The notes beneath the pieces were generated by a model. That model was not told where the DNA came from and made no database searches. It saw nothing but the letters and a program-made list of their open reading frames with translations. A program made the translations under genes and the position numbers. Positions 1,739-13,720 of a DNA stretch of 15,840 bases are shown here, piece by piece. Location of the stretch: the IMG/VR virus record IMGVR_UViG_2737471850_000008, positions 1-15,840 of that record; one strand, 5' to 3'. Origin of the DNA: a virus. Its lineage: Duplodnaviria > Heunggongvirae > Uroviricota > Caudoviricetes. Position 1 is the first letter of the stretch; every line of letters begins with the position of its first letter.

Positions 1739-2639
1739 TTTCAACAACAACCGCAAGCGATTTCAGGCGTGGAACACTCAGTTCGCTGGTGATATCACCC
1801 AGTGAAAAAGACAGTGATTCCGTCTGAGCAAATGTCCTGTGGATCTCCCGCCCCAGCTGAGAAAAGGAAAAACGCGAATATGGCCACGTCTTCCTGACGT
1901 CATAATCAGCATTCTCACGAAAAGCACAGCGGATCATGTTCTCCACCCCGTCCTTCAGGGTTTTCCTGTCCTCATCGCTGAAATTGGCCAGATTTTTGAC
2001 ATAAACTGTGACGGACAGATCATGAAGCGTTTCCGGCATGGGATAGCACTGCATATCATCACCGTGGCCGTGATGCCCCTGCGTGTTGATATAGTCATTG
2101 ACGGCATCCACGAACGGCGAAGAAGCCACCCCGCTGTCCAGCAACAGATACGCGTTGGCGGTACCGGGTCCCCTCGGCGCTTCATGTTCAAAGAAAATCC
2201 GGTCAATACTCAGCCCTGCAACGCCGGCAATCATCGACCGGTAAACGGCGTCAGTGTGGTAATTCCCCACCAGATTGAACTGATTGCGGCAGCGTTCGCG
2301 CAGCTCGTCATCACTTTCTTCATCCGCGCCCGGTACGGTCAGCCAGTTTTCTTCGCTGGCCACGTGGCTGATACCGTCAACGGCAACCGGCAGAATGCGG
2401 TAATATCCCGGCGCAAGGTTATATGCGCCCCCGGTGCCGGTGGCTTTTACCGGCAGTAATGCGCAGGCCGTACCGGAAGCGATCACTACATCCTCACTGG
2501 TGGCCAGCTCATACACGCGACCGTTAATGCGCTCTGTCTGGATACTGCCCCAGCCCGGTGTCCCGCTGTGCCGGGATGAACGCGATCTCGTCCATCTGGC
2601 TGTCAAATCCCTGCATTGCCCGTCTGGGCATGTTCGCAA
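1731..2639 (-). CDS. J: P2 gpJ-like baseplate protein; 5' end anomalous (TTG start in ORF track, Arg/Ser-rich first ~35 codons; possibly frameshifted or truncated)
   Basis: Central region ESDDELRERCRNQF resembles recalled P2 gpJ (ESDTDYRLRIQQAF). Size matches gpJ (302 aa). An ATG-initiated 35-codon ORF in another frame (ATG at 2631, MPRRAMQGFDSQMDEIAF...) overlaps the annotated N-terminus. Stop TGA at 1731-1733. Confidence 0.55.
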   Translation of the reverse strand: MRTCPDGQCRDLTARWTRSRSSRHSGTPGWGSIQTERINGRVYELATSEDVVIASGTACALLPVKATGTGGAYNLAPGYYRILPVAVDGISHVASEENWLTVPGADEESDDELRERCRNQFNLVGNYHTDAVYRSMIAGVAGLSIDRIFFEHEAPRGPGTANAYLLLDSGVASSPFVDAVNDYINTQGHHGHGDDMQCYPMPETLHDLSVTVYVKNLANFSDEDRKTLKDGVENMIRCAFRENADYDVRKTWPYSRFSFSQLGREIHRTFAQTESLSFSLGDITSELSVPRLKSLAVVVENE

Positions 2640-2669
2640 TGAGAAAATCGGTTAATGCCGTTAACTGGC

Positions 2670-3122
2670 TCATATCATGGCCACCGTAATGCGTTTCAGC
2701 CCTTTGATGCGGCGTACTGCCAGTGTGGACTCTGCAATCAGGCTGGAGCGGGTTTCGTCACTTTCCTGCCCCGGATGGCTCTCACGGCGACCAACAGACG
2801 CAAATTCGCCCATCAAATCAGCTTTGGCACGTGCATATACCGCTTTGCGATAACGGGCGCACAACAGATTTTCGCCGTCAATTTCCACGCCCGAAACGTC
2901 CGCCGCGCGCTCATGGCCAGCATTGCGATACCTTGCCGCCACACTGACCAGATCATCATTGATTTCGCCGGCTGCAGTCAGCAGTGCCTGGCGGATGGTG
3001 GCCGCATCAATATCGGCCGGAATGGTGCGCTGGGACTGAAAATCTTTCACGCTCAGGTCAGGCCAGAAGCCATCATTCGTCAGAGTGGCATCGTCAAAAT
3101 CAATTGAAGTTCCGCTGAACAT
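2670..3122 (-). CDS. L: P2 gpL-like head completion/stabilisation protein
   Basis: ATG at 3122 preceded by GGAG (SD); the track ORF starts at an upstream GTG (3161). C-terminal pattern ADVSGVEIDGENLLCARYRKAVYARAKADLMGEF resembles recalled gpL. It follows the M gene as in P2. Confidence 0.75.
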   Translation of the reverse strand: MFSGTSIDFDDATLTNDGFWPDLSVKDFQSQRTIPADIDAATIRQALLTAAGEINDDLVSVAARYRNAGHERAADVSGVEIDGENLLCARYRKAVYARAKADLMGEFASVGRRESHPGQESDETRSSLIAESTLAVRRIKGLKRITVAMI

Positions 3123-3215
3123 CCTGTTTCTCCGGAAAAAAGCGGGCTGGCCGGTTTCCACGGGCGATACGCTTATGCGATCCCCTCCACCGCGCCCGCT
3201 TTCGGGTCGGTAGTC

Positions 3216-3407
3216 TTACTCGCCGCGTTTTGCGGCCTGAATCTCACCTTCTTCAAACCACGCATCAGATGCGCGGCCGTCAGCAGTCTGATAGTGGATC
3301 AGATACTGATTGCAGCTGTTGGTGTACTCCGCACGGGCTTTGATATGCCCCTCTTCGCCGCTAATGGAAACTTCAACAACCTGGCCTAACTCATGCTTAA
3401 ACGACAT
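3216..3407 (-). CDS. Hypothetical 63-aa acidic protein inserted between small terminase and head completion genes
   Basis: ATG at 3407 lies 1 nt after the TGA of gene M (TGATATG coupling) and is preceded by GGGAG. No P2 gene occupies this position. No family recognised. Confidence 0.5.
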   Translation of the reverse strand: MSFKHELGQVVEVSISGEEGHIKARAEYTNSCNQYLIHYQTADGRASDAWFEEGEIQAAKRGE

Positions 3408-3408
3408 A

Positions 3409-4122
3409 TCAAACTCCCGTAGACTCTTTTTTCAGCGCCCGCAGACGCGCAGCAATACGCTGCAACATCGTGCCAACACCACATTTAGGGTCGAATCCCT
3501 TCGCCTGCTCCAGCAGTTCCTTAGCCCGGAGCAATACTTCCCTGTCTTCCGTTGCCGCTGCGCGTGGCTCTCCGTTTTCATCGCGTAGCAGGTGCAGACC
3601 GGCAAACTTCAGGTATTTGGCCTTAATGACCTCATACACATTCCAGTGCTGCGTCACGTTTTCCAGCGTACGGCCAAAATACGGCTCCACATCATGCCCC
3701 TGTACGGCTTCCGCTTCCGCCCAGGACAACACCGTATCCGCCACAAACACCGGGAACGTACTGCCGAACGCGGCCGGGGTTTCCTGCCCCCGCTGGATTG
3801 CCACATCCGCCCAGTCCAGCGCCTGGTCAAACTGGCCTGTATCAAACAGCCAGACGACACACCAGGCAAAAACAGGATTCTGTTGCACACTGTCACCTTC
3901 CAGCCAGGATTGCGCGGTTGGCATCCAGCGCGGTAACAGCACATCACGCTTAAATTCCATTCGCTCAGCGCGGCTTTCAATCGCTGCAGCTGCGGCGACA
4001 TCTTTCTCCAGCGCGACAATCTGAATATGCAGGCTGGTTTCCGTGTCCAGAGACTGCTGCTGTCGCAGTAACCGCTCCGCTTCAATTCGTGCGCTGTGGC
4101 GCTGTGCCGGTGACAGTTGCAT
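3409..4122 (-). CDS. M: P2 gpM-like terminase small (endonuclease) subunit
   Basis: 237 aa; ATG with AAGGGGGAT SD; positioned between N and L as in P2; sequence character consistent with the gpM family (from memory). Confidence 0.8.
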   Translation of the reverse strand: MQLSPAQRHSARIEAERLLRQQQSLDTETSLHIQIVALEKDVAAAAAIESRAERMEFKRDVLLPRWMPTAQSWLEGDSVQQNPVFAWCVVWLFDTGQFDQALDWADVAIQRGQETPAAFGSTFPVFVADTVLSWAEAEAVQGHDVEPYFGRTLENVTQHWNVYEVIKAKYLKFAGLHLLRDENGEPRAAATEDREVLLRAKELLEQAKGFDPKCGVGTMLQRIAARLRALKKESTGV

Positions 4123-4132
4123 TAAATCCCCC

Positions 4133-5161
4133 TTACTCGCCTGCCGGAGGCGCGACAGGTGCCCCGATAGCTACCGCACTTTCATCAAACGCGGCGTACA
4201 GTTCCGGATACTCAACCGCATAACCTTCGTTACGCAGGTATTTGTTTTCGTACTGTTTACGGTCTTCCACAAACTCCGCTTTACGCTGACGCGTGCCGCG
4301 CTGGGTGTAGATGTGCAGGTTTGGCAGTGTCGTAACAATCATGCGTTTGCCTGGCATAAACGGCGGTACGTAAGCCGTGCGGCCGGCGATGCTGTCAGAC
4401 AGCAGTTGCGCGGCGATCTTCTCCGTGGGTTTGTCTGCTTTCTGATACAGACGGAACGACTCCGCCGCGACCAGATCAGCGCCGACAAGAACCACCAGGC
4501 GTGGATCATTACGGTACTGTGCCGGGATTTTGGCGTTGATAAGGTCGGAGGCCATTGCATCCAGCGACACGTAATCGCCTTTCCCGTCACCGTCAAGCAC
4601 CACCGCATCAGTGATGATCTGCTGGCCGTCCTTCCACTCTTTGACGATCTGATGCCAGCCCTTGTTCACATCCTCGCCGTTCGGGTTGGTTTCCGCGTTC
4701 GTGGTCTCGGCCACTTTGGTACCGTTAAAGCCGATACGCAGCATATCCAGCGCAAACGCCTGATTGGTGAACTCCTGAACACGCTGGAAAAACTCGTTTT
4801 CATCGCCGGCGTTCGCCCAGACAGAAAGCAACTGCCAGGTGAGTGCGGCGCATGAGTCGGTCTCGACCAGACTGTAATCATTACCACTCACGCCCACTTT
4901 CTTACGGAAGCGGCCATCCAGTACACGCCCGGTATACAGGCCAGAGCTGCCAACCGGAACCACCTGCCCCTGCAGCTGATCGACATCGGCAACGGTGATC
5001 AGATTCAGGAAATCAGACTGCTCCATCAGCGCATTGCGCAGCTGGGTTTCTTTGGGGTCGGTGAGTGCAAACCAGCGTTCGCTGTCGGTCGCCCCGTAGG
5101 ATTCACGCAGCCCGGTGTGATACTGAAGCAGAAACTCACGGGCTTTCGCATTTAATTGCAT
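4133..5161 (-). CDS. N: P2 gpN-like major capsid protein
   Basis: 342 aa; ATG with AAGGA SD; C-terminal region (DPRLVVLVGADL...YVPPFMPGK...) resembles recalled P2 N (DPDLVVIVGRQLL...VPYFPAD); lies in O-N-M order. Confidence 0.85.
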   Translation of the reverse strand: MQLNAKAREFLLQYHTGLRESYGATDSERWFALTDPKETQLRNALMEQSDFLNLITVADVDQLQGQVVPVGSSGLYTGRVLDGRFRKKVGVSGNDYSLVETDSCAALTWQLLSVWANAGDENEFFQRVQEFTNQAFALDMLRIGFNGTKVAETTNAETNPNGEDVNKGWHQIVKEWKDGQQIITDAVVLDGDGKGDYVSLDAMASDLINAKIPAQYRNDPRLVVLVGADLVAAESFRLYQKADKPTEKIAAQLLSDSIAGRTAYVPPFMPGKRMIVTTLPNLHIYTQRGTRQRKAEFVEDRKQYENKYLRNEGYAVEYPELYAAFDESAVAIGAPVAPPAGE

Positions 5162-5195
5162 ATTCTTTTTCCTTAAAGAAAAGTAGTGTTATCCC

Positions 5196-6035
5196 TTACA
5201 GGAAATTGAAGCCTTTTTTGCCCTTGCTGAATTTCTTGTCCGGCAGTTGAGTAACTTTGTTATTCAGCTTGCTGAAGTTTTTCACCAGCTCCGGCAGGTT
5301 CCCCACCAGACGCGCAAAATCTTCGGTGTCCACTACTTCCTTCACGGTGTCCACATCGTCCTGCACATCAGATACCGCTTCTTCCGCCTCACCCAGACGG
5401 GTTTCAATAGCAGATACGCGCTTATCAATGGCATCCAGCGCTTCAGCCAGCGCCTGTAAGGCATCAGACTGTGAAGGTTCCTGCTCCGGGGTCTGCTCCG
5501 GTTCTTCGATACTGAAAAAATGGCGCCAGCCCTTTTTCGCTGTCTTTGACATTCCCTTTTCCTTTTTAAATTCCCTGACTTCATCAAACGCCAGCGGCTT
5601 GTATGGTCCGATGCGTTTTCCCCTGGTGCGGCTGAAACGTAACCGTGTGGTGCTTACCCCGGCCGGACTGTCAGTAATGGCCAGTCCCTCAAGATAGGTT
5701 TTCCCGGTATTTCTGAAATTGCCGTCCGGTGTAAACTCCGGTGATAAAAATAAAAGCTGACCGTCTGCATTTGCCTGTAGCAATGAAATCGCCGGACAGA
5801 GGCGGGCATATAAACGAAGAATACCTTCATCATCCCGCTCGGCTTTTACTTCCAGCACCTCCCCCATATTCCCGAAATTACGGGAATGTTCCGGCCATAA
5901 CAGCGCGGTATACAAAGAGGGGTCATATAATTCAGCGGCATCAAGCAACCATTGTTCTTCAATAAATCGCTTATCAACCGTTTCACCCGCAGTGGCGATA
6001 CAAATCCAGTTTGTTGCCAGTTGTGAACCTGACAT
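5196..6035 (-). CDS. O: P2 gpO-like capsid scaffolding protein/protease
   Basis: ATG at 6035 (MSGSQLATNW...) preceded by GGAGG; the track ORF extends to 6095. N-terminal WICIATAGETVDKRFI...GEVLEVKAE resembles recalled gpO (FFRIGVEGDTCDGRVI...GDVAELKAE). Acidic C-terminal half typical of scaffolds. Confidence 0.8.
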   Translation of the reverse strand: MSGSQLATNWICIATAGETVDKRFIEEQWLLDAAELYDPSLYTALLWPEHSRNFGNMGEVLEVKAERDDEGILRLYARLCPAISLLQANADGQLLFLSPEFTPDGNFRNTGKTYLEGLAITDSPAGVSTTRLRFSRTRGKRIGPYKPLAFDEVREFKKEKGMSKTAKKGWRHFFSIEEPEQTPEQEPSQSDALQALAEALDAIDKRVSAIETRLGEAEEAVSDVQDDVDTVKEVVDTEDFARLVGNLPELVKNFSKLNNKVTQLPDKKFSKGKKGFNFL

Positions 6036-6163
6036 ATTGCCTCCGTTCATGCTGCGGTTTTCAGTATCGCCAATAAAATTAACCGCCGCATTCACTTCAT
6101 TTCGGATATAGGCTATTAGCCGAACACATCAGAAATAAAGCGGGATTTAATATACAAACGCCC
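6036..6163. promoter_or_regulatory. Divergent intergenic region between O and P; expected location of late promoters
   Basis: Position between divergently transcribed head operons, as for P2 PO/PP. No canonical TGT-N12-ACA Ogr box was found by eye, so promoter elements are not defined. Confidence 0.35.
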
Positions 6164-7960
6164 GTGCATAATGTGTGCATGGCTAAATATTCAGAAGAAT
6201 TAAAAGGCGTTGCGCGGGCGCTTTATTTAAAACGCTATACCCCGCAGGAAATTGCCAGCGAACTTAATCTGCCTAACAGACGCATTGTCTATTACTGGGC
6301 GGAGAAATATTGCTGGGCGGAATTACTCAGTCATGAATCCACCGAAGATGCATTAAACCGTCGCATTCAGTCACTGACATTACGTGAAGGGAAATCGGAG
6401 CTGGAGCTGCGGGAGCTGGACAGTCTCGTTTCTCACCTGGTGAAACTACGTGCACAGCACAATAAGCATCAGGAAAAGCTGGCAGAAATTAAACACAGTG
6501 AAAATGATGCGCCGGCGCGTCAGTCCGGTGGCGACGAAAAGCCCCGGAAACGTGGCAAGTACAAAAAGAACGACATCAGCGGACTGACACAGGAAGATTT
6601 TGACCGGTTCGCGCTGGAGCACCTTTTCGGTTACCAGAAACACCTTCGCGCTAATCTTCATCAGCAAATCAGGAACATCCTGAAAAGCCGCCAGATTGGT
6701 GCAACCTGGTATTTCTCAATAGAAGCCTTTGAGAATGCGGTCATGACAGGCGATCCGCAAATCTTCCTGTCCGCATCAAAGGCTCAGGCGGAAGTATTCC
6801 GCAGCTATATCGTCAACATTGCGGAGCAGTATTTCGGCGTGGAGCTGACGGGAAACCCCATCCGCCTCTCCAACGGCGCGGAGATGCGATTCCTGTCCAC
6901 CAACAAGAACACCGCCCAGTCATACAGCGGCCATCTGTACTGCGATGAATATTTCTGGGTACCCAACTTTGCAAAATTAAACGAAGTGGCCAGCGCGATG
7001 GCCACACACGACAAATGGCGAACCACCTACTTTTCCACCCCCAGCAGCAAAACGCACCAGGCGTACCCGTTCTGGACTGGTGAAGAATGGAAGCGCGGTG
7101 ACAAAAAACGCGCGCGCGTACAATTTCCCACGGAGAAGGAGCTGCGCGACGGTGGACGGTTATGTCCTGATGGGCAGTGGCGCTACATCATCACAATGGA
7201 AGACGCGATCGCAGGCGGGTTTAATCTCGCCAGCATCGGGAAGCTGCGCAACCGCTACAACCGCGACACTTTCAACATGCTGTATATGTGCGTGTTCGTG
7301 GACAGCAAGGACAGCGTATTTTCGTTCTCTCACGTAGAACGCTGCTGTGTAGATCCGGATATCTGGGAGGATCATGACGAAAACCTGCCCCGGCCGTTCG
7401 GCAACCGTGAAGTGTGGGCGGGTTATGACCCGGCTCGCAGCGGAGACACCTCCACCTTCGTGATCATCGCGCCGCCGATAGTGGCCGGCGAAAAATTTCG
7501 GGTACTGCGTGTATTCCACTGGCAGGGGATGAACTGGAAGTGGCAGGCGGCACAGATTAAGAAGCTGTTTGGCCAGTACAACATGACCTACATCGGCATT
7601 GATATCACTGGACTGGGTAGCGGTGTCTTTGAAGACGTTCAGCACTTTGCCATGCGTCAGGCAGTGGCGATCCGCTACGGCGTCGAGACCAAAAATCGTC
7701 TGGTGATGAAGATGATCGACGTTATCGAAGACGGCCGCGTGGAATGGGATAAGGAGAAGACCGAAATCGCCGCCAGCTTTATGACCATCCGCCGTACGTC
7801 CACGGCCAGCGGCAACGCAATGACTTTCGTCGCCGATCGCACAGCAGAAACAGGACACGCAGACAGTTTCTGGGCTATCGCCCATGCCATTGACAACGAG
7901 CCATTAAACTTTGAAAACCAGCGAAAATCACGCTGGGGTAACTTAGGGAAAGCAGCATGA
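6164..7960 (+). CDS. P: P2 gpP-like terminase large (ATPase) subunit
   Basis: About 593-598 aa; the track start is GTG at 6164 and the first ATG is at 6179 (MAKYSEELKG). Size and position match P2 P. Stop overlaps the Q start (ATGA at 7957-7960). Confidence 0.85.
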   Translation: MHNVCMAKYSEELKGVARALYLKRYTPQEIASELNLPNRRIVYYWAEKYCWAELLSHESTEDALNRRIQSLTLREGKSELELRELDSLVSHLVKLRAQHNKHQEKLAEIKHSENDAPARQSGGDEKPRKRGKYKKNDISGLTQEDFDRFALEHLFGYQKHLRANLHQQIRNILKSRQIGATWYFSIEAFENAVMTGDPQIFLSASKAQAEVFRSYIVNIAEQYFGVELTGNPIRLSNGAEMRFLSTNKNTAQSYSGHLYCDEYFWVPNFAKLNEVASAMATHDKWRTTYFSTPSSKTHQAYPFWTGEEWKRGDKKRARVQFPTEKELRDGGRLCPDGQWRYIITMEDAIAGGFNLASIGKLRNRYNRDTFNMLYMCVFVDSKDSVFSFSHVERCCVDPDIWEDHDENLPRPFGNREVWAGYDPARSGDTSTFVIIAPPIVAGEKFRVLRVFHWQGMNWKWQAAQIKKLFGQYNMTYIGIDITGLGSGVFEDVQHFAMRQAVAIRYGVETKNRLVMKMIDVIEDGRVEWDKEKTEIAASFMTIRRTSTASGNAMTFVADRTAETGHADSFWAIAHAIDNEPLNFENQRKSRWGNLGKAA

Positions 7961-8976
7961 AAAAACGGAAATACAGGGAACGCCGCACCGCCAGCAAGCC
8001 GCGCCATATGAGCCTTATTACCCTGGGTAAACCGGAACCCATTCTGACGACCGGCACAAACTACACAGACGTCTGGTATGACAATGAAGCGGAACACTGG
8101 ACGCTCCCGATTGACCGGCTGGCGCTGGCGCAACTGGTGAACCTGAACGCGCAGCACGGCGGTGTGCTGTATGCCCGTCGCAATATGGTGACGGCAAACT
8201 ATAAAGACGGCGGACTGACGCATGAACAGCTTGGTGCAGCCGTGTTCGACTGGCTGACCTTCGGTGATGTGGCCATTCTGAAAGTGCGTAACGGCTGGGG
8301 GGATGTGGTGGCACTGTACCCGCTGCCGGCACTCTATACCCGCCAGCGTAAGACCGGGGAGTTTGTGGTACTGCAGCAGGGTGAACCGATGATTTATCCG
8401 CCTGAAGATATTATTTTTCTCAGGCAGTACGATCCGCAACAGGCGATTTATGGTCTGCCGGATTATATCAGCGGTATCCATTCTGCCCTGCTTAACGGTG
8501 AGGCAACAATTTTTCGTCGGCGTTACTACCATAACGGCGGACACACAGGTGGCATGATCTACTGTAACGACCCAAATATGACTGATGAAGTGGAAGAAGA
8601 AATTATTCAGAAGCTGGAGCAGTCAAAGGGGATCGGGAACTTCAGCACCATGTTTGTGAACATCCCCAAAGGCGATCCGGACGGCATCAAATTTATCCCG
8701 ATTGGGGATATCAGCGCCAAAGATGAGTTTCAGAACATCAAGAGCATCAGCGCCCAGGACGTACTGACCGCGCATCGATTCCCGGCAGGACTGGCGGGGA
8801 TTATCCCGACGAACGGCGCAGTAATGGGAGATGTTGAGAAAGCGTCCAAAACCTACCGCAAAGCAGAAATTTTGCCCATTCAGCGCATGTTTACCGCCGC
8901 AGTGGAACAGGAAAGTGATGTACCGCCCCACCTGTACCTTAATTTCCTGAAAGACAGTGAGCTGGAAGGTGATTAA
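7957..8976 (+). CDS. Q: P2 gpQ-like portal protein
   Basis: 339 aa versus about 344 aa for P2 Q; translationally coupled to P; family identification from memory. Confidence 0.85.
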   Translation: MKKRKYRERRTASKPRHMSLITLGKPEPILTTGTNYTDVWYDNEAEHWTLPIDRLALAQLVNLNAQHGGVLYARRNMVTANYKDGGLTHEQLGAAVFDWLTFGDVAILKVRNGWGDVVALYPLPALYTRQRKTGEFVVLQQGEPMIYPPEDIIFLRQYDPQQAIYGLPDYISGIHSALLNGEATIFRRRYYHNGGHTGGMIYCNDPNMTDEVEEEIIQKLEQSKGIGNFSTMFVNIPKGDPDGIKFIPIGDISAKDEFQNIKSISAQDVLTAHRFPAGLAGIIPTNGAVMGDVEKASKTYRKAEILPIQRMFTAAVEQESDVPPHLYLNFLKDSELEGD

Positions 8977-9029
8977 TGTTCGCAAAAAGGCTAAAATATC
9001 ATCGTTTTCCAACTTCCGGAGCGATGGAT

Positions 9030-9305
9030 ATGCGGGTAATGAAGGTTTACTGTCCGGTATGTGAGGCAAGGGCTGTTATCAAAAAAACAGCCCGAAAACA
9101 CAAGGAACTGTCGGATTTATATTGCGCGTGTACCGATGTTGAATGTGGTCACACTTTTGTGATGAATATGACATTCTCACATACCATCAGCCCCAGCGCC
9201 AAATCCAGCGATGCGTTGATCGCCACTATCTGTAACAGCCTTGATATCCAGCAAAAGCAGCTGATGTTAAAGTTTCTGAGTCAGGACGGCACTGCTGCCG
9301 CATAG
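9030..9305 (+). CDS. ogr: Ogr/Delta-family zinc-finger late transcription activator, with a C-terminal extension relative to P2 Ogr
   Basis: CPVC...(22 aa)...CACTDVEC four-cysteine arrangement, as in Ogr/Delta. GGAG 9 nt upstream of the ATG at 9030; alternative starts at 9024 and 9042; the track ORF begins at 8976. Confidence 0.75.
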   Translation: MRVMKVYCPVCEARAVIKKTARKHKELSDLYCACTDVECGHTFVMNMTFSHTISPSAKSSDALIATICNSLDIQQKQLMLKFLSQDGTAAA

Positions 9306-9306
9306 A

Positions 9307-9337
9307 AAAAAGCACCGCTACCGGTGCTTTTATTTTC
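9307..9337 (+). terminator. Rho-independent terminator after ogr
   Basis: Stem AGCACCG / CGGTGCT (9311-9317 and 9322-9328), loop CTAC, followed by TTTTATTTT; A-run upstream. Confidence 0.75.
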
Positions 9338-9383
9338 TGAGATGTAACAGATTCCCATCTATCAACGTCGATGAATGACCAAG

Positions 9384-9444
9384 TGATTAATAGTCCCCCC
9401 CTCCTAAACATGATATTATCTTTCCAAATTTTGGGAGGCATCTT
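9384..9444 (+). promoter_or_regulatory. Putative promoter and RBS of the glycosyltransferase moron, containing a C7 homopolymer
   Basis: TATTAT (9414-9419) as candidate -10; TTAATA/TGATTA about 21-24 bp upstream as candidate -35; C7 run at 9395-9401 lies between them; strong SD GGGAGG at 9432-9437. Confidence 0.3.
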
Positions 9445-10164
9445 ATGTTAATAGTCTCAGTTCTTAAATGTAGTAAAGAGTTTACCCCTAAACACGCCCA
9501 ATGGCTTCATCGTCAGTTCAAAGATATTCCATCTATATGTTTAACCGATGCAGATAATATTCCTGGAGTTAACACAACCCCTTTGCTTTATAACTGGCCG
9601 GGATGGTGGTCTAAAATTGAACTATTTAATCCTAATCACCCAGTCCTTGGAGACCAAGATTTACTCTATTTTGACGTAGATGTTGTGGTCACGGGAGATA
9701 TTCATATTTTCGAAGGTGCGAAGAAATTTACAATGCTTCGGGAGTTTAACCATGCCTCAAGAGTAAACTCATCAATAATGATGATTCCGGCGTCGATTAA
9801 AAAGACGATTTGGGAACAATTCATTATTGATCCTGAGAAAATTATGCGCAATTGTCAGACTGAAGACAAATGGGGTGATCAGGGATTTCTCGGTAGCATC
9901 ATAAAACCAGCCCTATGGCAGGATATCATTCCTGGCTCAATTGTTAGTTATAAATGTGACATCGCCACCCCCTCGATGATTGGCTTCAATGCAAATTTAG
10001 CCTCTGAGGCTGCGACAGGGAAAGTCCCTGATAATGTGGCGGTTGTTTGCTTTCATGGCAGTCCACGCCCCTGGCGTACTGGTTTTGATTGGGTTCCTTC
10101 GTTTTCCCTGCGGGATACTCTGTACGGTAAATTAAAGAACTTTAAAATAAGAATGAAGCAATAA
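9445..10164 (+). CDS. GT8-family-like (glycogenin/LgtC/RfaJ-type, DxD) glycosyltransferase; AT-rich moron
   Basis: Motifs in GT8 order and spacing: DxD (LLYFDVDVVV), NSS (cf. FNSGV), WGDQGFL (cf. GGDQGILN), CFHGSPRPW (cf. HFxGxxKPW). AT-rich compared with the flanking phage genes. Strong SD and ATG. Confidence 0.6.
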   Translation: MLIVSVLKCSKEFTPKHAQWLHRQFKDIPSICLTDADNIPGVNTTPLLYNWPGWWSKIELFNPNHPVLGDQDLLYFDVDVVVTGDIHIFEGAKKFTMLREFNHASRVNSSIMMIPASIKKTIWEQFIIDPEKIMRNCQTEDKWGDQGFLGSIIKPALWQDIIPGSIVSYKCDIATPSMIGFNANLASEAATGKVPDNVAVVCFHGSPRPWRTGFDWVPSFSLRDTLYGKLKNFKIRMKQ

Positions 10165-10201
10165 AGATAACGCCCCTATTGCTTCAATGTTCGCTCCTTC
10201 C

Positions 10202-10219
10202 CCTAACAATAAAGTTAGG
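10202..10219. terminator. Hairpin CCTAAC-AATAAA-GTTAGG between the convergent glycosyltransferase and primase-helicase genes; possible bidirectional terminator
   Basis: 6-bp perfect inverted repeat read directly; AT-rich stem, so weak. Confidence 0.3.
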
Positions 10220-10232
10220 CACTAGTGAACCG

Positions 10233-12890
10233 TTACTTTTCCCGGCCAAATATCCAGCAGCGGAATGTTTCCGGCATCCGTTGCATATCCCCTTTACCAC
10301 GATTATGGCGCTCACTTACCGCGCTGCGCGTGGTGCTTTGTCTGATAAACCGGCGCTCATTGCCGTTTTTAAGCAGCTTTTTAATTTCCGTTAACGTGAA
10401 CGGAATACGCTGCCGGTGTGCTGCGGCGACCTCTTCCATGTGATTGAAATTAACCGCGATTTCATTTTCATCTGATGAATGATTGATGCCATAAGGTGCC
10501 AGTTCATCCAAGTAATCAAACAGCTCCCAGAACTCCTGCACCAGAGGATGATCCTTTTTAAGTGCCTGACAACGTTCAACGGCCAGCGCGGTGATGGCTT
10601 CACGCGTTTTTTCTATACGTTCAACCGGCACCGGTACAACAAGTGCAAGCGCCTCCAGCAAGCCCACAAGCTGCGCGTGATTCTTTGCAATACGGATATG
10701 GCGAATACTGCTATTAGACTCCAGCTCATTCCTAGCTCGCTCGTACCCCCTGCCGAACGTCTGCATGATTTCTTTTTCGCGCATGGTGGCCAGTAATGTG
10801 AATCCGGATACCTGGCTAACGGGGAGTTGTTCAAGTCGTTCTGCAGCGTGGCGCGTCTGAATGGACTGGCCGCGCTTGTCGGTATAGATGTGGATGATAC
10901 GCTCCAGAAACGCCTTGCTGCCGTCTGTGTCGGCATTTTGCGCTATCACAATACTTCCCCTGAACGGCGGCTCATACGTCTCGTTATTGTTCGATTTGAT
11001 ACCCACGGCGCGGGAGGCACGACCGTTATACAGTGATTTCAGCTCGTCCCAGTCAAAAGCGCGTTGCTTGGCGTTATCGGTAGTACGGTCGCCCTCAATC
11101 AGCACAACCGGCAGATTACCGACCTGGGCGAAGTTACGGCCACGCGCGGCGGCGGTAGATTTAGATGGGTCAAACCCTTCGTATTCCTCACGGCCGGCGA
11201 GCTTCCAGAGAAATTCTATCAGCGTGGATTTACCTGTCCCCGGCTCGCCCACGATTTCCAGAAACGGAAATGACTTGTCACGCTCGCGGATTTGTTCGGC
11301 AAACAGCGACCCCAGCCAGAACGCCAGCGCCACATACCCTTTTTCACCAAATGCCGTCCAGATATCGTCTACCCAACCCGTAGTAAACTCGTTCAGCTTC
11401 GGATTCAGATCCAGCGCCGGCGTGAGGCTCAGGCTCTTAACGCTGGCACTGTTGATTTCGAAGTAATCCTCGTCGTTCATCTCATACAGCCGGCCATCGC
11501 AAACGGCCACGCGGTTAAACAACCAGGCGGCATAATCCTTGTTATAGCCGATGAAATTCTGCGTCTTTACCTCTTTGATTTCAGGGAGGCGCATCTGGAT
11601 GAACTTATCCAGCTGTTTGGTGCTGCCTGTGTACACCGCCCCTTTGGCGATGTGCAGCAGACGCTTTTTGAACTCGGCGGAGCTGGTGAGCTGATTAGCC
11701 GTGAAAGTATCTTTCACGGCTGGCCGGTTAGGCATACTGACTTTCACGTAATACCAGGACTCGTCCGTAGGTTCAGACCGCTGAAAGTAAAGCGGCGTCA
11801 GCCAGCAGTTAGCTATTTCGGTCACGCCGCCTGACTCTTTAACCGCCCGTTCTTTGGCCTCCCACTCCATCACCACTTCGGTACCGGTATTGGTGATGCG
11901 CTCATAGGCTCGCATATACCTGTCCAGATCCAGCTCAAACCAGTACATGCGGGAGTTATGCTCAAAGTAGAACGAGTGCCACTCGTTATGCTGATGCATG
12001 AGCAGCGCTTTCTCAGTCGGGCTTTTTGCCAGAAGGAGATCGCCATAGTAGCGATAATTTTTAATGTCCGACTTACTGAACCGGTTACGTAACAACAGGT
12101 CATTCCAGTCCAGCGATGCCGATGATTTCACCGGCTGCGCGGCACGAGTTTTCCATCCTGCAGCATCACTACGGGCAGCGAACGCCAGTGTGTGCTTTGT
12201 GCCGGCTTTATCGCCGTCAAACGCCCATACAAGACGTGGACGTGGTTTTTCACCCAGTTCTTTGGCCAGCGTATCCAGTGCGGCCAGCGGATAGTTGTTA
12301 CTGCTCAGTGTGGCAACTGCAGGTAACCCTACCTGGCACAGACTCAGCGCGTTGAAGATTCCCTCAGTGATCCAGATTTCGTTCACTTCCTGCAGGTTGA
12401 TAAAGGGAGGAACCCACCAGTGACCGACATAGCTTCCCCTGATGTTGGCTTTCTGCTTACCGAAGCGCTGCGGCTGGTCAATGATGCGCTCCCATGTTGC
12501 ACCGCATGACAGCGAAAATCTGACCGTTGCCGACCCCATGCCATCTTTCACGAATGCACCCTGGGTAAAACAGCCTTTTAATGGCTCAGTCTCCAGCCCT
12601 CTGGCCTCGCGCAGATACGCCTCAGCTACTGCATGGGGGTTATCTTCTGTGGTCTGGTAACGTTTTGACCAGTCTTCAAAGATATCCGGATACAGCTCTT
12701 TCACGACAATCTGATGTGCGCAGTTATTTTCACGGCCACATTTCAGAATCCAGGGCTTTTCTATGCTGGTAAATAATTCGCGCTTACGACAGGCAGGGCA
12801 AACGCCCTGCTGCAAATACTTATCCCGCTCTTTAAATTCAAAGTCCCGAACAAGACGGCGCACAACGTCCTGTTGTATCGTTTCGTTCAT
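10233..12890 (-). CDS. Primase-helicase of the P4 alpha type (zinc-binding N-terminus, Toprim primase, P-loop NTPase)
   Basis: ATG at 12890 (MNETIQQ); the track ORF starts at TTG 12926. CPACRK...(16 aa)...CGRENNC zinc motif; Toprim-like ITEG and FDGDKAG; Walker A GEPGTGKS and Walker B-like VVLIEGD. Confidence 0.8.
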   Translation of the reverse strand: MNETIQQDVVRRLVRDFEFKERDKYLQQGVCPACRKRELFTSIEKPWILKCGRENNCAHQIVVKELYPDIFEDWSKRYQTTEDNPHAVAEAYLREARGLETEPLKGCFTQGAFVKDGMGSATVRFSLSCGATWERIIDQPQRFGKQKANIRGSYVGHWWVPPFINLQEVNEIWITEGIFNALSLCQVGLPAVATLSSNNYPLAALDTLAKELGEKPRPRLVWAFDGDKAGTKHTLAFAARSDAAGWKTRAAQPVKSSASLDWNDLLLRNRFSKSDIKNYRYYGDLLLAKSPTEKALLMHQHNEWHSFYFEHNSRMYWFELDLDRYMRAYERITNTGTEVVMEWEAKERAVKESGGVTEIANCWLTPLYFQRSEPTDESWYYVKVSMPNRPAVKDTFTANQLTSSAEFKKRLLHIAKGAVYTGSTKQLDKFIQMRLPEIKEVKTQNFIGYNKDYAAWLFNRVAVCDGRLYEMNDEDYFEINSASVKSLSLTPALDLNPKLNEFTTGWVDDIWTAFGEKGYVALAFWLGSLFAEQIRERDKSFPFLEIVGEPGTGKSTLIEFLWKLAGREEYEGFDPSKSTAAARGRNFAQVGNLPVVLIEGDRTTDNAKQRAFDWDELKSLYNGRASRAVGIKSNNNETYEPPFRGSIVIAQNADTDGSKAFLERIIHIYTDKRGQSIQTRHAAERLEQLPVSQVSGFTLLATMREKEIMQTFGRGYERARNELESNSSIRHIRIAKNHAQLVGLLEALALVVPVPVERIEKTREAITALAVERCQALKKDHPLVQEFWELFDYLDELAPYGINHSSDENEIAVNFNHMEEVAAAHRQRIPFTLTEIKKLLKNGNERRFIRQSTTRSAVSERHNRGKGDMQRMPETFRCWIFGREK

Positions 12891-12929
12891 AAATAATCCA
12901 GATGTGAAATAATGGGTAAAAGGCAAAAA

Positions 12930-13148
12930 CTATATTCTGTACTGCTTGTTATATCGCTCATGTGTCATTAGTTCCCAGCTTCTGCCCTTATCCTTACTCA
13001 GTAATCGCCAGTGATAAGAAACATGAACAGAGAAATAATGTTTTGGCTTAATAACCTGATATACCTTTTTGCCGTTGTAATATTCTGTCAGCACTGAAAA
13101 TGCCTTGTGAATGACACTTTCACTTGCATGAGAGGTCACTGTAAGCAT
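12930..13148 (-). CDS. Hypothetical 72-aa protein
   Basis: ORF between the exonuclease and primase genes with ATG 2 nt after the exonuclease stop; weak SD; AT-rich; no recognised motifs. Could instead be non-coding regulatory DNA. Confidence 0.35.
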   Translation of the reverse strand: MLTVTSHASESVIHKAFSVLTEYYNGKKVYQVIKPKHYFSVHVSYHWRLLSKDKGRSWELMTHERYNKQYRI

Positions 13149-13150
13149 CG

Positions 13151-13720
13151 TTATTTCACACTGGCTATTTTTACAAGATACATCCAGACATAAGAAACAA
13201 CTTTAGCCTGATGAATGGCATCATATAAAGCGTGATGTTTAACACCATCAAACTTAATAATATTACGAACATTCAGCCCAAGTGTTTTTGACAGTTCAAC
13301 AACCGTTCTTACATCACGGTCATTCCAGTAGTACCAAAGTGGATCGGCAAACCCGCATTTCTCTGATGCATTACGTAAAATAACATTGTCGAACGCTGCA
13401 CTATTCCCCCATACCTGTACTTTAGATGGGTCAGAATGCTCAGTAATAAAAGCTTCCAGATTAGCTAACGTCAGAGGCAAGTCCAGACAATCGTCATTAA
13501 GCAGCTCGCTACGCGCTTCGGCATCCTGACGCATCCACCATAATACGGTTTCTGACCCCATAGTGAGACCGTGGCCTACACAGCTGCCCAGGCTGACACG
13601 TTGATAAAACTGTTCACCCATTTCGCCAGTTTCAGGGTCAAAGAATACAGCACCGATAGAAGCAATCGCAGAAGTCGGTTTATTATCCATTGTTTCAAGG
13701 TCAATCATTAAATGTTTCAT
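13151..13720 (-). CDS. DEDDh-family (DnaQ/RNase T-like) 3'-5' exonuclease
   Basis: Exo I MIDLETMD (D-x-E), Exo II WGNSAAFD, Exo III HHALYDAIH (H-x4-D). ATG with AAGGAA SD. AT-rich. Confidence 0.8.
   Translation of the reverse strand: MKHLMIDLETMDNKPTSAIASIGAVFFDPETGEMGEQFYQRVSLGSCVGHGLTMGSETVLWWMRQDAEARSELLNDDCLDLPLTLANLEAFITEHSDPSKVQVWGNSAAFDNVILRNASEKCGFADPLWYYWNDRDVRTVVELSKTLGLNVRNIIKFDGVKHHALYDAIHQAKVVSYVWMYLVKIASVK

Follow-up and report, generated by a model that had tools for sequence, protein, structure and literature searches.

Comparative evidence for an optional and mobile small gene, and for a conserved structured RNA beside it, between the M and L genes of a P2-like prophage derivative

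Phage P2 carries its small terminase gene M and its head completion gene L side by side. Why, then, does a related element carry an additional small acidic open reading frame between the two, and is that ORF a component of the head, a piece of cargo, or an accident of annotation? The window analyzed here, a stretch of 15,840 nucleotides from a tailed-phage record in IMG/VR (IMGVR_UViG_2737471850_000008), contains such an ORF, which we call orf63. The first-pass annotation had described it as a small acidic ORF with its own Shine-Dalgarno (SD) sequence, translationally coupled to M and followed by a 93-bp gap; had suggested either a capsid accessory (a decoration or size-determination-like factor) or a moron, of special interest if the element were a satellite; and had proposed that homologs, the corresponding junction of related phages, and a predicted structure would be informative. 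We have followed these leads, and conclude that orf63 is best regarded as an optional and mobile gene whose insertion site is bounded by an older structured RNA.

The M-L junction and its parent prophage

The features of the locus are:

3216..3407, minus strand: orf63, an accessory gene for a 63-residue acidic protein predicted to be a single-domain SH3-like (HspQ/YccV-like) beta-barrel; PHROG 8618/1935
3408..3425, minus strand: junction carried with the cassette, comprising the last five M codons (ESTGV), TGA, the GGGAG SD, and a 1-nt spacer
3409..4122, minus strand: M, small terminase subunit (PF05944, phrog_74), which is the partner on the upstream side within the late O-N-M operon
3123..3215, minus strand: structured intergenic RNA element of the phage backbone, consisting of a hairpin in three tiers, then a U-run and the ribosome-binding site of L
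2670..3122, minus strand: L, head completion protein or head-tail adaptor (PF05926, phrog_71), starting at ATG 3122

The extra ORF, its SD, and its coupling to the M stop are all borne out by the sequence. On the minus strand, orf63 begins with ATG (3407-3405) and ends with TAA (3218-3216), and the 63-residue product, MSFKHELGQVVEVSISGEEGHIKARAEYTNSCNQYLIHYQTADGRASDAWFEEGEIQAAKRGE, is acidic (computed pI 5.05, 7.07 kDa, net charge about -5). At the M/orf63 junction, ...GGGAGTTTGAtATG, the M stop TGA (3411-3409) is followed by a single base and then by the orf63 initiation codon (TGAtATG), with a GGGAG SD located 6 nt upstream of the ATG. The flanking genes are identified by strong matches of M to PF05944 (E 1e-38) and phrog_74 (E 2e-71), and of L to PF05926 (E 5e-46, from L residue 14 onward in ATG 3122 numbering). 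M and L are indeed adjacent in P2, as had been stated, and no orf63 intervenes; the P2 genes (M 5157-5900, L 6000-6509) are nevertheless separated by a 99-bp spacer. The distance of 93 bp between the orf63 stop and L is likewise correct if L starts at ATG 3122, but the gap is present with or without the ORF and is not a consequence of the insertion.

Between positions 2600 and 4200 the window is 98.4% identical to Escherichia phage ESSI2_ev239 (NC_049392; Peduoviridae, Evevirus), whose complete 29.2-kb genome encodes orf63 as HYP19_gp20, a 'hypothetical protein', and the locus recurs at an identity of at least 99.7% in 14 of 5,426 complete E. coli genomes. Compared with ev239, the window lacks two blocks: i) ev239 6807-13668 (~6.9 kb), which encodes baseplate, tape measure, lysis, tube, sheath, and tail completion functions; and ii) ev239 28918 through the end of the record to 5563 (~5.8 kb), which encodes fibres and baseplate. 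Deletion is confirmed by the baseplate-wedge gene next to L (1731-2639), which is truncated and covers only profile positions 171-430 of 548. Besides M, orf63, and L, the genes for integrase, repressor/cox, and primase remain, as do ogr, Q, P, O, and N; portal, terminase, scaffold, and capsid genes are among those left intact. Judged by gene content, the window is a tail-less and lysis-less deletion derivative of an ESSI2_ev239-type prophage. We therefore rejected the reading of the window as a satellite, since the truncated tail genes mark a deletion derivative; nor is orf63 specific to satellites, because the same gene is present in the intact 29-kb phage.

Two further observations concern the element as a whole. 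A more eroded copy lies between pheL and raiA in E. coli PSJ-12. Window positions 9202-10230 have no counterpart in ev239 and hence represent a second cargo insertion; a 239-aa ORF on the plus strand (9445-10164), flanked by ogr (8976-9305) and the primase gene, gives a match at E 6e-81 to phrog_1962 ('glycosyltransferase', in the moron/host-takeover category) and none in PADLOC.

An optional insertion and a covarying RNA

We examined the M-L junction in the 80 IMG/VR contigs encoding the closest relatives of the window M, 79 of which have both genes. An equivalent of orf63 occupies the junction in 12 of these 79 P2-like contigs; the junction is an empty spacer of 93-128 bp in 66; and a single contig (L122, 3212-3460) has an unrelated 82-aa ORF instead. 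The 96-bp M-L spacer of Cronobacter phage ESSI-2 also lacks orf63. One empty-site contig (L054) has an M 89% identical to that of the window and a nearly identical spacer without orf63, and alignment of the two reveals a clean ~200-bp indel. By this comparison, the cassette takes in the five final codons of M, where the orf63 SD resides, and ends with the orf63 stop, directly beside the conserved 'GACTACCG', the first motif of the spacer; the L054 M ends five codons earlier than the window M. Placement of the insertion is consistent across P2-type loci, the orf63 start falling -11 to +18 nt from the M stop in 16 of 17. An apparent in-frame fusion of M and orf63 in IMG/VR contigs L049-L053, which would have tied orf63 to TerS, was discarded, because a TAG lies 18 nt ahead of the ATG, a stop that the tblastn alignment had run across. 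On the strength of this distribution, orf63 is an optional gene and not part of the P2-type head module.

Cargo of other kinds also occupies this site, including the 82-aa ORF of L122 and, in the Citrobacter sp. FP75 prophage (L023, 4670-4988), an extra ~80-aa strongly hydrophobic (membrane) ORF located between M and orf63. After the extra ORF in L023, the 'GCTACCGCAAGCC' motif found at the start of the RNA element is partly repeated, and this motif may serve as a recombination joint. To our knowledge, the M-L junction is not among the described P2 cargo hotspots.

Conservation of the spacer at the nucleotide level exceeds that of the flanking proteins, whether or not orf63 is present. When window 3123-3215 (minus strand) is aligned with 58 related sequences (alignment A7, 59 distinct sequences), the spacer forms a three-tier hairpin with 19 base pairs in four helices; compensatory changes are found in 14 of the 19 pairs, and 97.7% of cells are paired. 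None of 500 column shuffles reached the observed value for cells paired, for pairs and cells changed on both sides, or for the covariation score, and 3 of 500 did so for further pair types; sliding the 3′ partners of the stems reduces pairing to 30-48%. Behind the outer stem, AAGCGGGCG...CAGCCCGCUU, 50 of the 59 sequences have four or more U residues in a row, and the ribosome-binding site of L comes directly after. Searches with a covariance model detect the element exactly once in each genome, at the M-L junction, and do not find it in the lambdoid carriers of orf63 homologs (phiP27, OS31, and pECO-b75). P2 has a different and strongly structured hairpin at the same site (z -3.65); this analogue aside, single-sequence fold z-scores are unremarkable (-0.3 to -1.7), and only covariation revealed the element. 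A search of the window against Rfam left the element unmatched, a simple terminator scan does not call the hairpin because of its long loop, and we were unable to find either the element or orf63 in the literature on P2 M-L intergenic structure, ESSI2_ev239, and P2-like diversity.

Because the hairpin is also present at empty sites, together with its U-run, it belongs to the phage backbone, and we could reject the possibility that it is an intrinsic terminator brought in by the cassette. We conclude from the pattern of covariation and from the empty sites that the RNA element is real, conserved, and older than the orf63 insertion. By inference only, it would function as a leaky intrinsic terminator or as a processing/stability element, and it may be an attenuator or a processing site.

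The element also bears on where L begins. RefSeq starts L at GTG 3161 in phage ev239, and the RefSeq L genes of ESSI2_ev239 and ev015 both begin at an upstream GTG/ATG (163-167 aa) within the conserved RNA stem, whereas PGAP uses ATG in E. coli PSJ-12. ATG 3122 has a GGAG SD 7 nt upstream and yields a product of 150 aa; because GTG 3161 falls inside the conserved stem, ATG 3122 is the more likely start.

The orf63 family and its genomic settings

orf63 is conserved well beyond the P2-like phages. It matches PHROG 8618 over nearly the entire profile (E 1.2e-35, residues 1-60 on profile positions 1-60 of 61), as does a lambdoid copy (L154, E 1e-37), and it also matches PHROG 1935 (E 2e-20) and PHROG 16275 (E 7e-9). 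A word-indexed search found 54 close relatives across Enterobacterales, and 954 cluster representatives scored E<=1e-3 in an exhaustive profile search (205 of them E<=1e-10), most being stand-alone proteins of 55-100 aa; matches to very large repeat proteins (P0059 and similar) resemble compositional or repeat artefacts. Eleven residues are invariant in 40 close homologs, and dN/dS among P2-context copies is 0.05-0.15, with dS at or near saturation. By these measures orf63 is a real gene under purifying selection.

PHROGs 8618, 1935, and 16275 are all annotated as function unknown and database names are all 'hypothetical'; orf63 has no match in Pfam (E<=1) or NCBIfam, nor among PADLOC defence-system models at E<=0.01; a PDB sequence search with orf63 returned nothing informative; and no informative Pfam domains (fusions) were found in the longer family members. 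With these three PHROGs, whose type example is L33 of phiP27 (NP_543085), orf63 has in common a full-length HMM match and the core FKFxLxQxV...SGExG...RAEY...NxY..Y.AADGR...WF.E; RefSeq names the ESSI2_ev015 copy 'L33' after the phiP27 protein. The window orf63 represents the minimal form (61-65 aa), whereas phiP27 L33 and the phage-plasmid copies are extended both N- and C-terminally (115-136 aa). As a conserved, optional small phage gene, already in RefSeq as 'hypothetical' and catalogued in PHROGs, orf63 is in itself quite ordinary.

The gene also occurs outside the P2 late operon. Among the 80 closest IMG/VR homologs (at least 70% identity), i) 16 occupy the P2-type M-orf-L position; ii) 49 have a lambda-type TerL (phrog_15) ~1 kb downstream and, ~300 nt after the orf and ahead of TerL, a Nu1-like TerS (phrog_141); iii) 8 precede a P22-type TerS/TerL; and iv) one precedes an HK97-type module. 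The L33 gene of phiP27 lies two genes before the cos site and TerS, the homolog in Serratia OS31 lies between Rz and HNH/TerS, and further homologs are found in the records of Yersinia vB_YpM_44, Burkholderia Bcep176, PhiJL001, and other phages. Among 35 genome loci, six have the M-orf-L order and about 14 have an Rz spanin gene immediately upstream and packaging genes downstream; in 41 E. coli phage-plasmids of ~48 kb (~47-51 kb), the homolog is found between lysis genes or a methyltransferase and ParB-like/TerL genes. Distant members (30-50% identity) occur in early regions, beside exonuclease/RecT (Pseudovibrio prophages), a primase, or a dNMP kinase.

One such E. coli plasmid, pECO-b75 (L128, NZ_CP009861; related to Yersinia phage vB_YpM_44), encodes a 136-aa homolog at 4889-5299; homologs of this type are flanked on one side by an MT-A70 methyltransferase and small ORFs, and on the other by three ParB/Srx-domain genes and then the large terminase.

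The window orf63 is 80-85% identical to copies in lambdoid prophages compared with 61-76% to other P2-like copies, and we therefore take the cassette to have been transferred between phage families. Contigs also disagree in their M and orf63 identities (98% for the orf where M is 92%, 76% where M is 90%), which again indicates exchange of the cassette. These identities and settings show that orf63 is a horizontally mobile gene of temperate proteobacterial phages, shared by P2-like and lambdoid phages.

Predicted fold and candidate functions

AlphaFold2, given the family alignment, predicts a five-stranded barrel (pLDDT 86) which superposes on HspQ as an SH3-like beta-barrel; in a Foldseek search of the whole PDB, HspQ (5ycq) is the top match (E 1.3e-3, TM 0.83), ~ten-fold better than the next, and all matches in a BFVD viral fold search are to uncharacterised proteins. 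By hhalign, a profile of 78 family members matches the single E. coli HspQ sequence with a probability of 39% and a shallow 22-sequence HspQ profile with a probability of 77% (E 2e-5), in register across the full domain. The likeness to the HspQ/YccV-like domain (PF08755) resides in the SH3-like barrel, and the differences are as follows: i) identity is 17%, and the PF08755 HMM, on which E. coli HspQ itself scores 74 bits, detects neither orf63 (E<=1) nor the 78 family members (E<=5); ii) a 15-residue gap falls opposite HspQ 31-46, orf63 lacking the ~15-residue insertion between strands beta2 and beta3; iii) orf63 ends at about HspQ residue 80 of 105 with no counterpart of the ~30-residue C-terminal tail, which in HspQ carries the Lon degron; and iv) HspQ is chromosomal and orf63 phage-encoded. 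Structure prediction, as proposed on first pass, thus yields an SH3-like barrel with HspQ/YccV as best match, and it is probable but unproven that this closest known fold reflects remote homology.

Domains of the YccV-like type, which are SH3-like barrels, serve as docking modules for AAA+ protease machinery (Lon, ClpS, and ClpX): HspQ activates Lon and, when acetylated, inhibits ClpS; PDIP38's YccV-like domain docks on the zinc-binding domain of ClpX; and plant ClpF, a YccV-like domain protein, pairs with ClpS1 (PMC7647994; PMC6719616).

Our best explanation as a whole, to which we would give slightly less than an even chance, is that orf63 is a mobile, late-coupled gene for a host-directed HspQ-like binder. 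The cassette would have been dropped precisely between the M stop and the pre-existing RNA element in one ESSI-2/Evevirus-type P2-like lineage; orf63 would be made late from the O-N-M transcript, through translational coupling to M; the product would most likely act purely by binding; and the partner would be a component shared by the hosts (Enterobacterales) and not a capsid or terminase protein of P2, because copies with 70-85% identity serve phages with four unrelated terminase/head systems. Taken by itself, the proposition that orf63 is a host-directed binder and not a part of the capsid has about an even chance of being right. The product could then be a minimal phage HspQ-like decoy or modulator, retuning host proteolysis late in infection; this would be the likeliest specific mechanism because the YccV/HspQ domains characterised so far all dock on AAA+ protease machinery (Lon, ClpS-ClpAP, or ClpX). 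We wish to stress, however, that an AAA+ protease as the target is speculative and fairly unlikely, and that the fullest version of the idea, in which orf63 would be the founding phage-encoded minimal HspQ/YccV-like domain, a 7-kDa late decoy on Lon, ClpS, or ClpX, is quite unlikely. Against our best explanation stand the failure of the PF08755 HMM to detect orf63 or its family members, the lack of both the HspQ insertion and tail, the recurrence beside small-terminase genes of four families, which could mean a packaging role, and late expression, which is unusual for a host-takeover or anti-defence factor.

Could orf63 instead be a head or packaging accessory, whether a terminase cofactor or, as the first-pass annotation had proposed, a factor for capsid decoration/stabilisation or size? 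Translational coupling to M places the gene inside the head operon, and 74 of the 80 closest homologs have packaging genes nearby, at distances from a few hundred bases up to ~3 kb, typically as orf - ~300 nt - Nu1-like TerS - TerL or as Rz - orf - P22-type TerS, with phiP27 L33 just two genes before cos/TerS. The lysis-to-terminase junction of lambdoid phages is, however, a generic cargo slot, and proximity is countered by distribution: 66 of 79 close P2-like relatives do without orf63, among them one whose M is 89% identical, and the gene is thus dispensable for assembly; and it adjoins TerS genes of four unrelated families (PHROG 74, 141, 51, and the HK97 type) while remaining 70-85% identical, so that a specific protein-protein fit is hard to reconcile. 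Far from being tied to one capsid family, the gene is found with lambda-, P22-, HK97-, and P2-type modules as well as in early regions, where distant members sit beside exo/RecT, primase, or dNMP-kinase genes. Nor does the fold help, as neither the PDB and BFVD fold matches nor the PDB sequence matches include any protein known to decorate capsids or set their size (P4 Psu/Sid, lambda gpD type); the sole likeness to these proteins is that orf63 too is a small protein expressed with head genes, and it differs from them in having no fixed capsid family and in being absent from most relatives. We consider a head or packaging role unlikely, and the capsid-accessory or size-determination reading in particular poorly supported and very unlikely.

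A nucleic-acid-binding regulator, in which the SH3/KOW/Tudor-like barrel would bind DNA (for example, hemimethylated) or RNA, is decidedly unlikely. Pfam does call the YccV-like family 'hemimethylated DNA-binding', an activity first reported for YccV; the orf63 fold has KOW/Tudor neighbors; a DNA adenine methyltransferase is encoded nearby in many lambdoid carriers; and orf63 lies directly upstream of a conserved structured RNA. But the protein is acidic (pI 5.0, charge about -5) with no basic patch in its sequence, the ev239 genome has no annotated methyltransferase, and RNA and gene do not travel together, since 66 contigs have the RNA without orf63 and the carriers phiP27, OS31, and pECO-b75 have orf63 homologs without the RNA.

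The other suggestion made on first pass, a moron, is broadly right insofar as orf63 is an optional inserted gene. Like the morons of lambdoid and P2-like phages (the P2 cargo sites old, tin, and Z/fun), it lies between two genes that are adjacent in relatives, the positional hallmark of a moron, and shows signs of exchange between unrelated phages. It differs in having no promoter or terminator of its own and in being coupled translationally to a gene of a late structural operon: no promoter-like (sigma-70-like) site was found in window 2400-6400, the downstream hairpin is backbone and not cassette, and at nearly every locus the orf63 start touches or overlaps the M stop, which makes expression dependent on the late operon. 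The GC content of orf63 (0.52) is not distinct from that of its neighbors (0.49-0.57), and no defence-system model matches it. Lacking its own promoter and terminator, orf63 is not a classical moron (sensu Hendrix and colleagues), and a prophage-expressed, host-benefiting gene of lysogenic conversion is highly improbable. There is virtually no chance that orf63 is a functionless chance ORF or annotation artefact, as its mere 63 codons and want of a Pfam or NCBIfam family might suggest, because the conservation data rule this out (strong PHROG matches, 954 family representatives with 205 at E<=1e-10, 11 invariant residues over 40 sequences, and dN/dS of 0.05-0.15 with saturated dS) and the fold prediction is confident.

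What might these findings mean for the phages concerned? The interval from the M stop to the conserved RNA element constitutes a precise and recurrent cargo site in P2-like late operons. The ~95-nt covarying hairpin would, if the assignment is true, be an undescribed regulatory RNA motif of these operons, independent of orf63, and it probably sets the ratio of the abundant head proteins (O, N, and M) to L and the tail genes. T4 PinA and T7 Gp4.5 target Lon, and Gp4.5 defeats a Lon-dependent toxin-antitoxin abortive-infection system; if orf63 were indeed a host-directed decoy for a protease, it would protect late phage proteins or block protease-triggered abortive-infection or toxin-antitoxin responses. 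With about 1,000 clusters at 50% identity, the orf63 family is large, and it stands beside packaging genes of four unrelated types; its predicted fold, which points to the protease-docking domain of HspQ/YccV, provides a cheap and testable hypothesis for a widespread ORFan.
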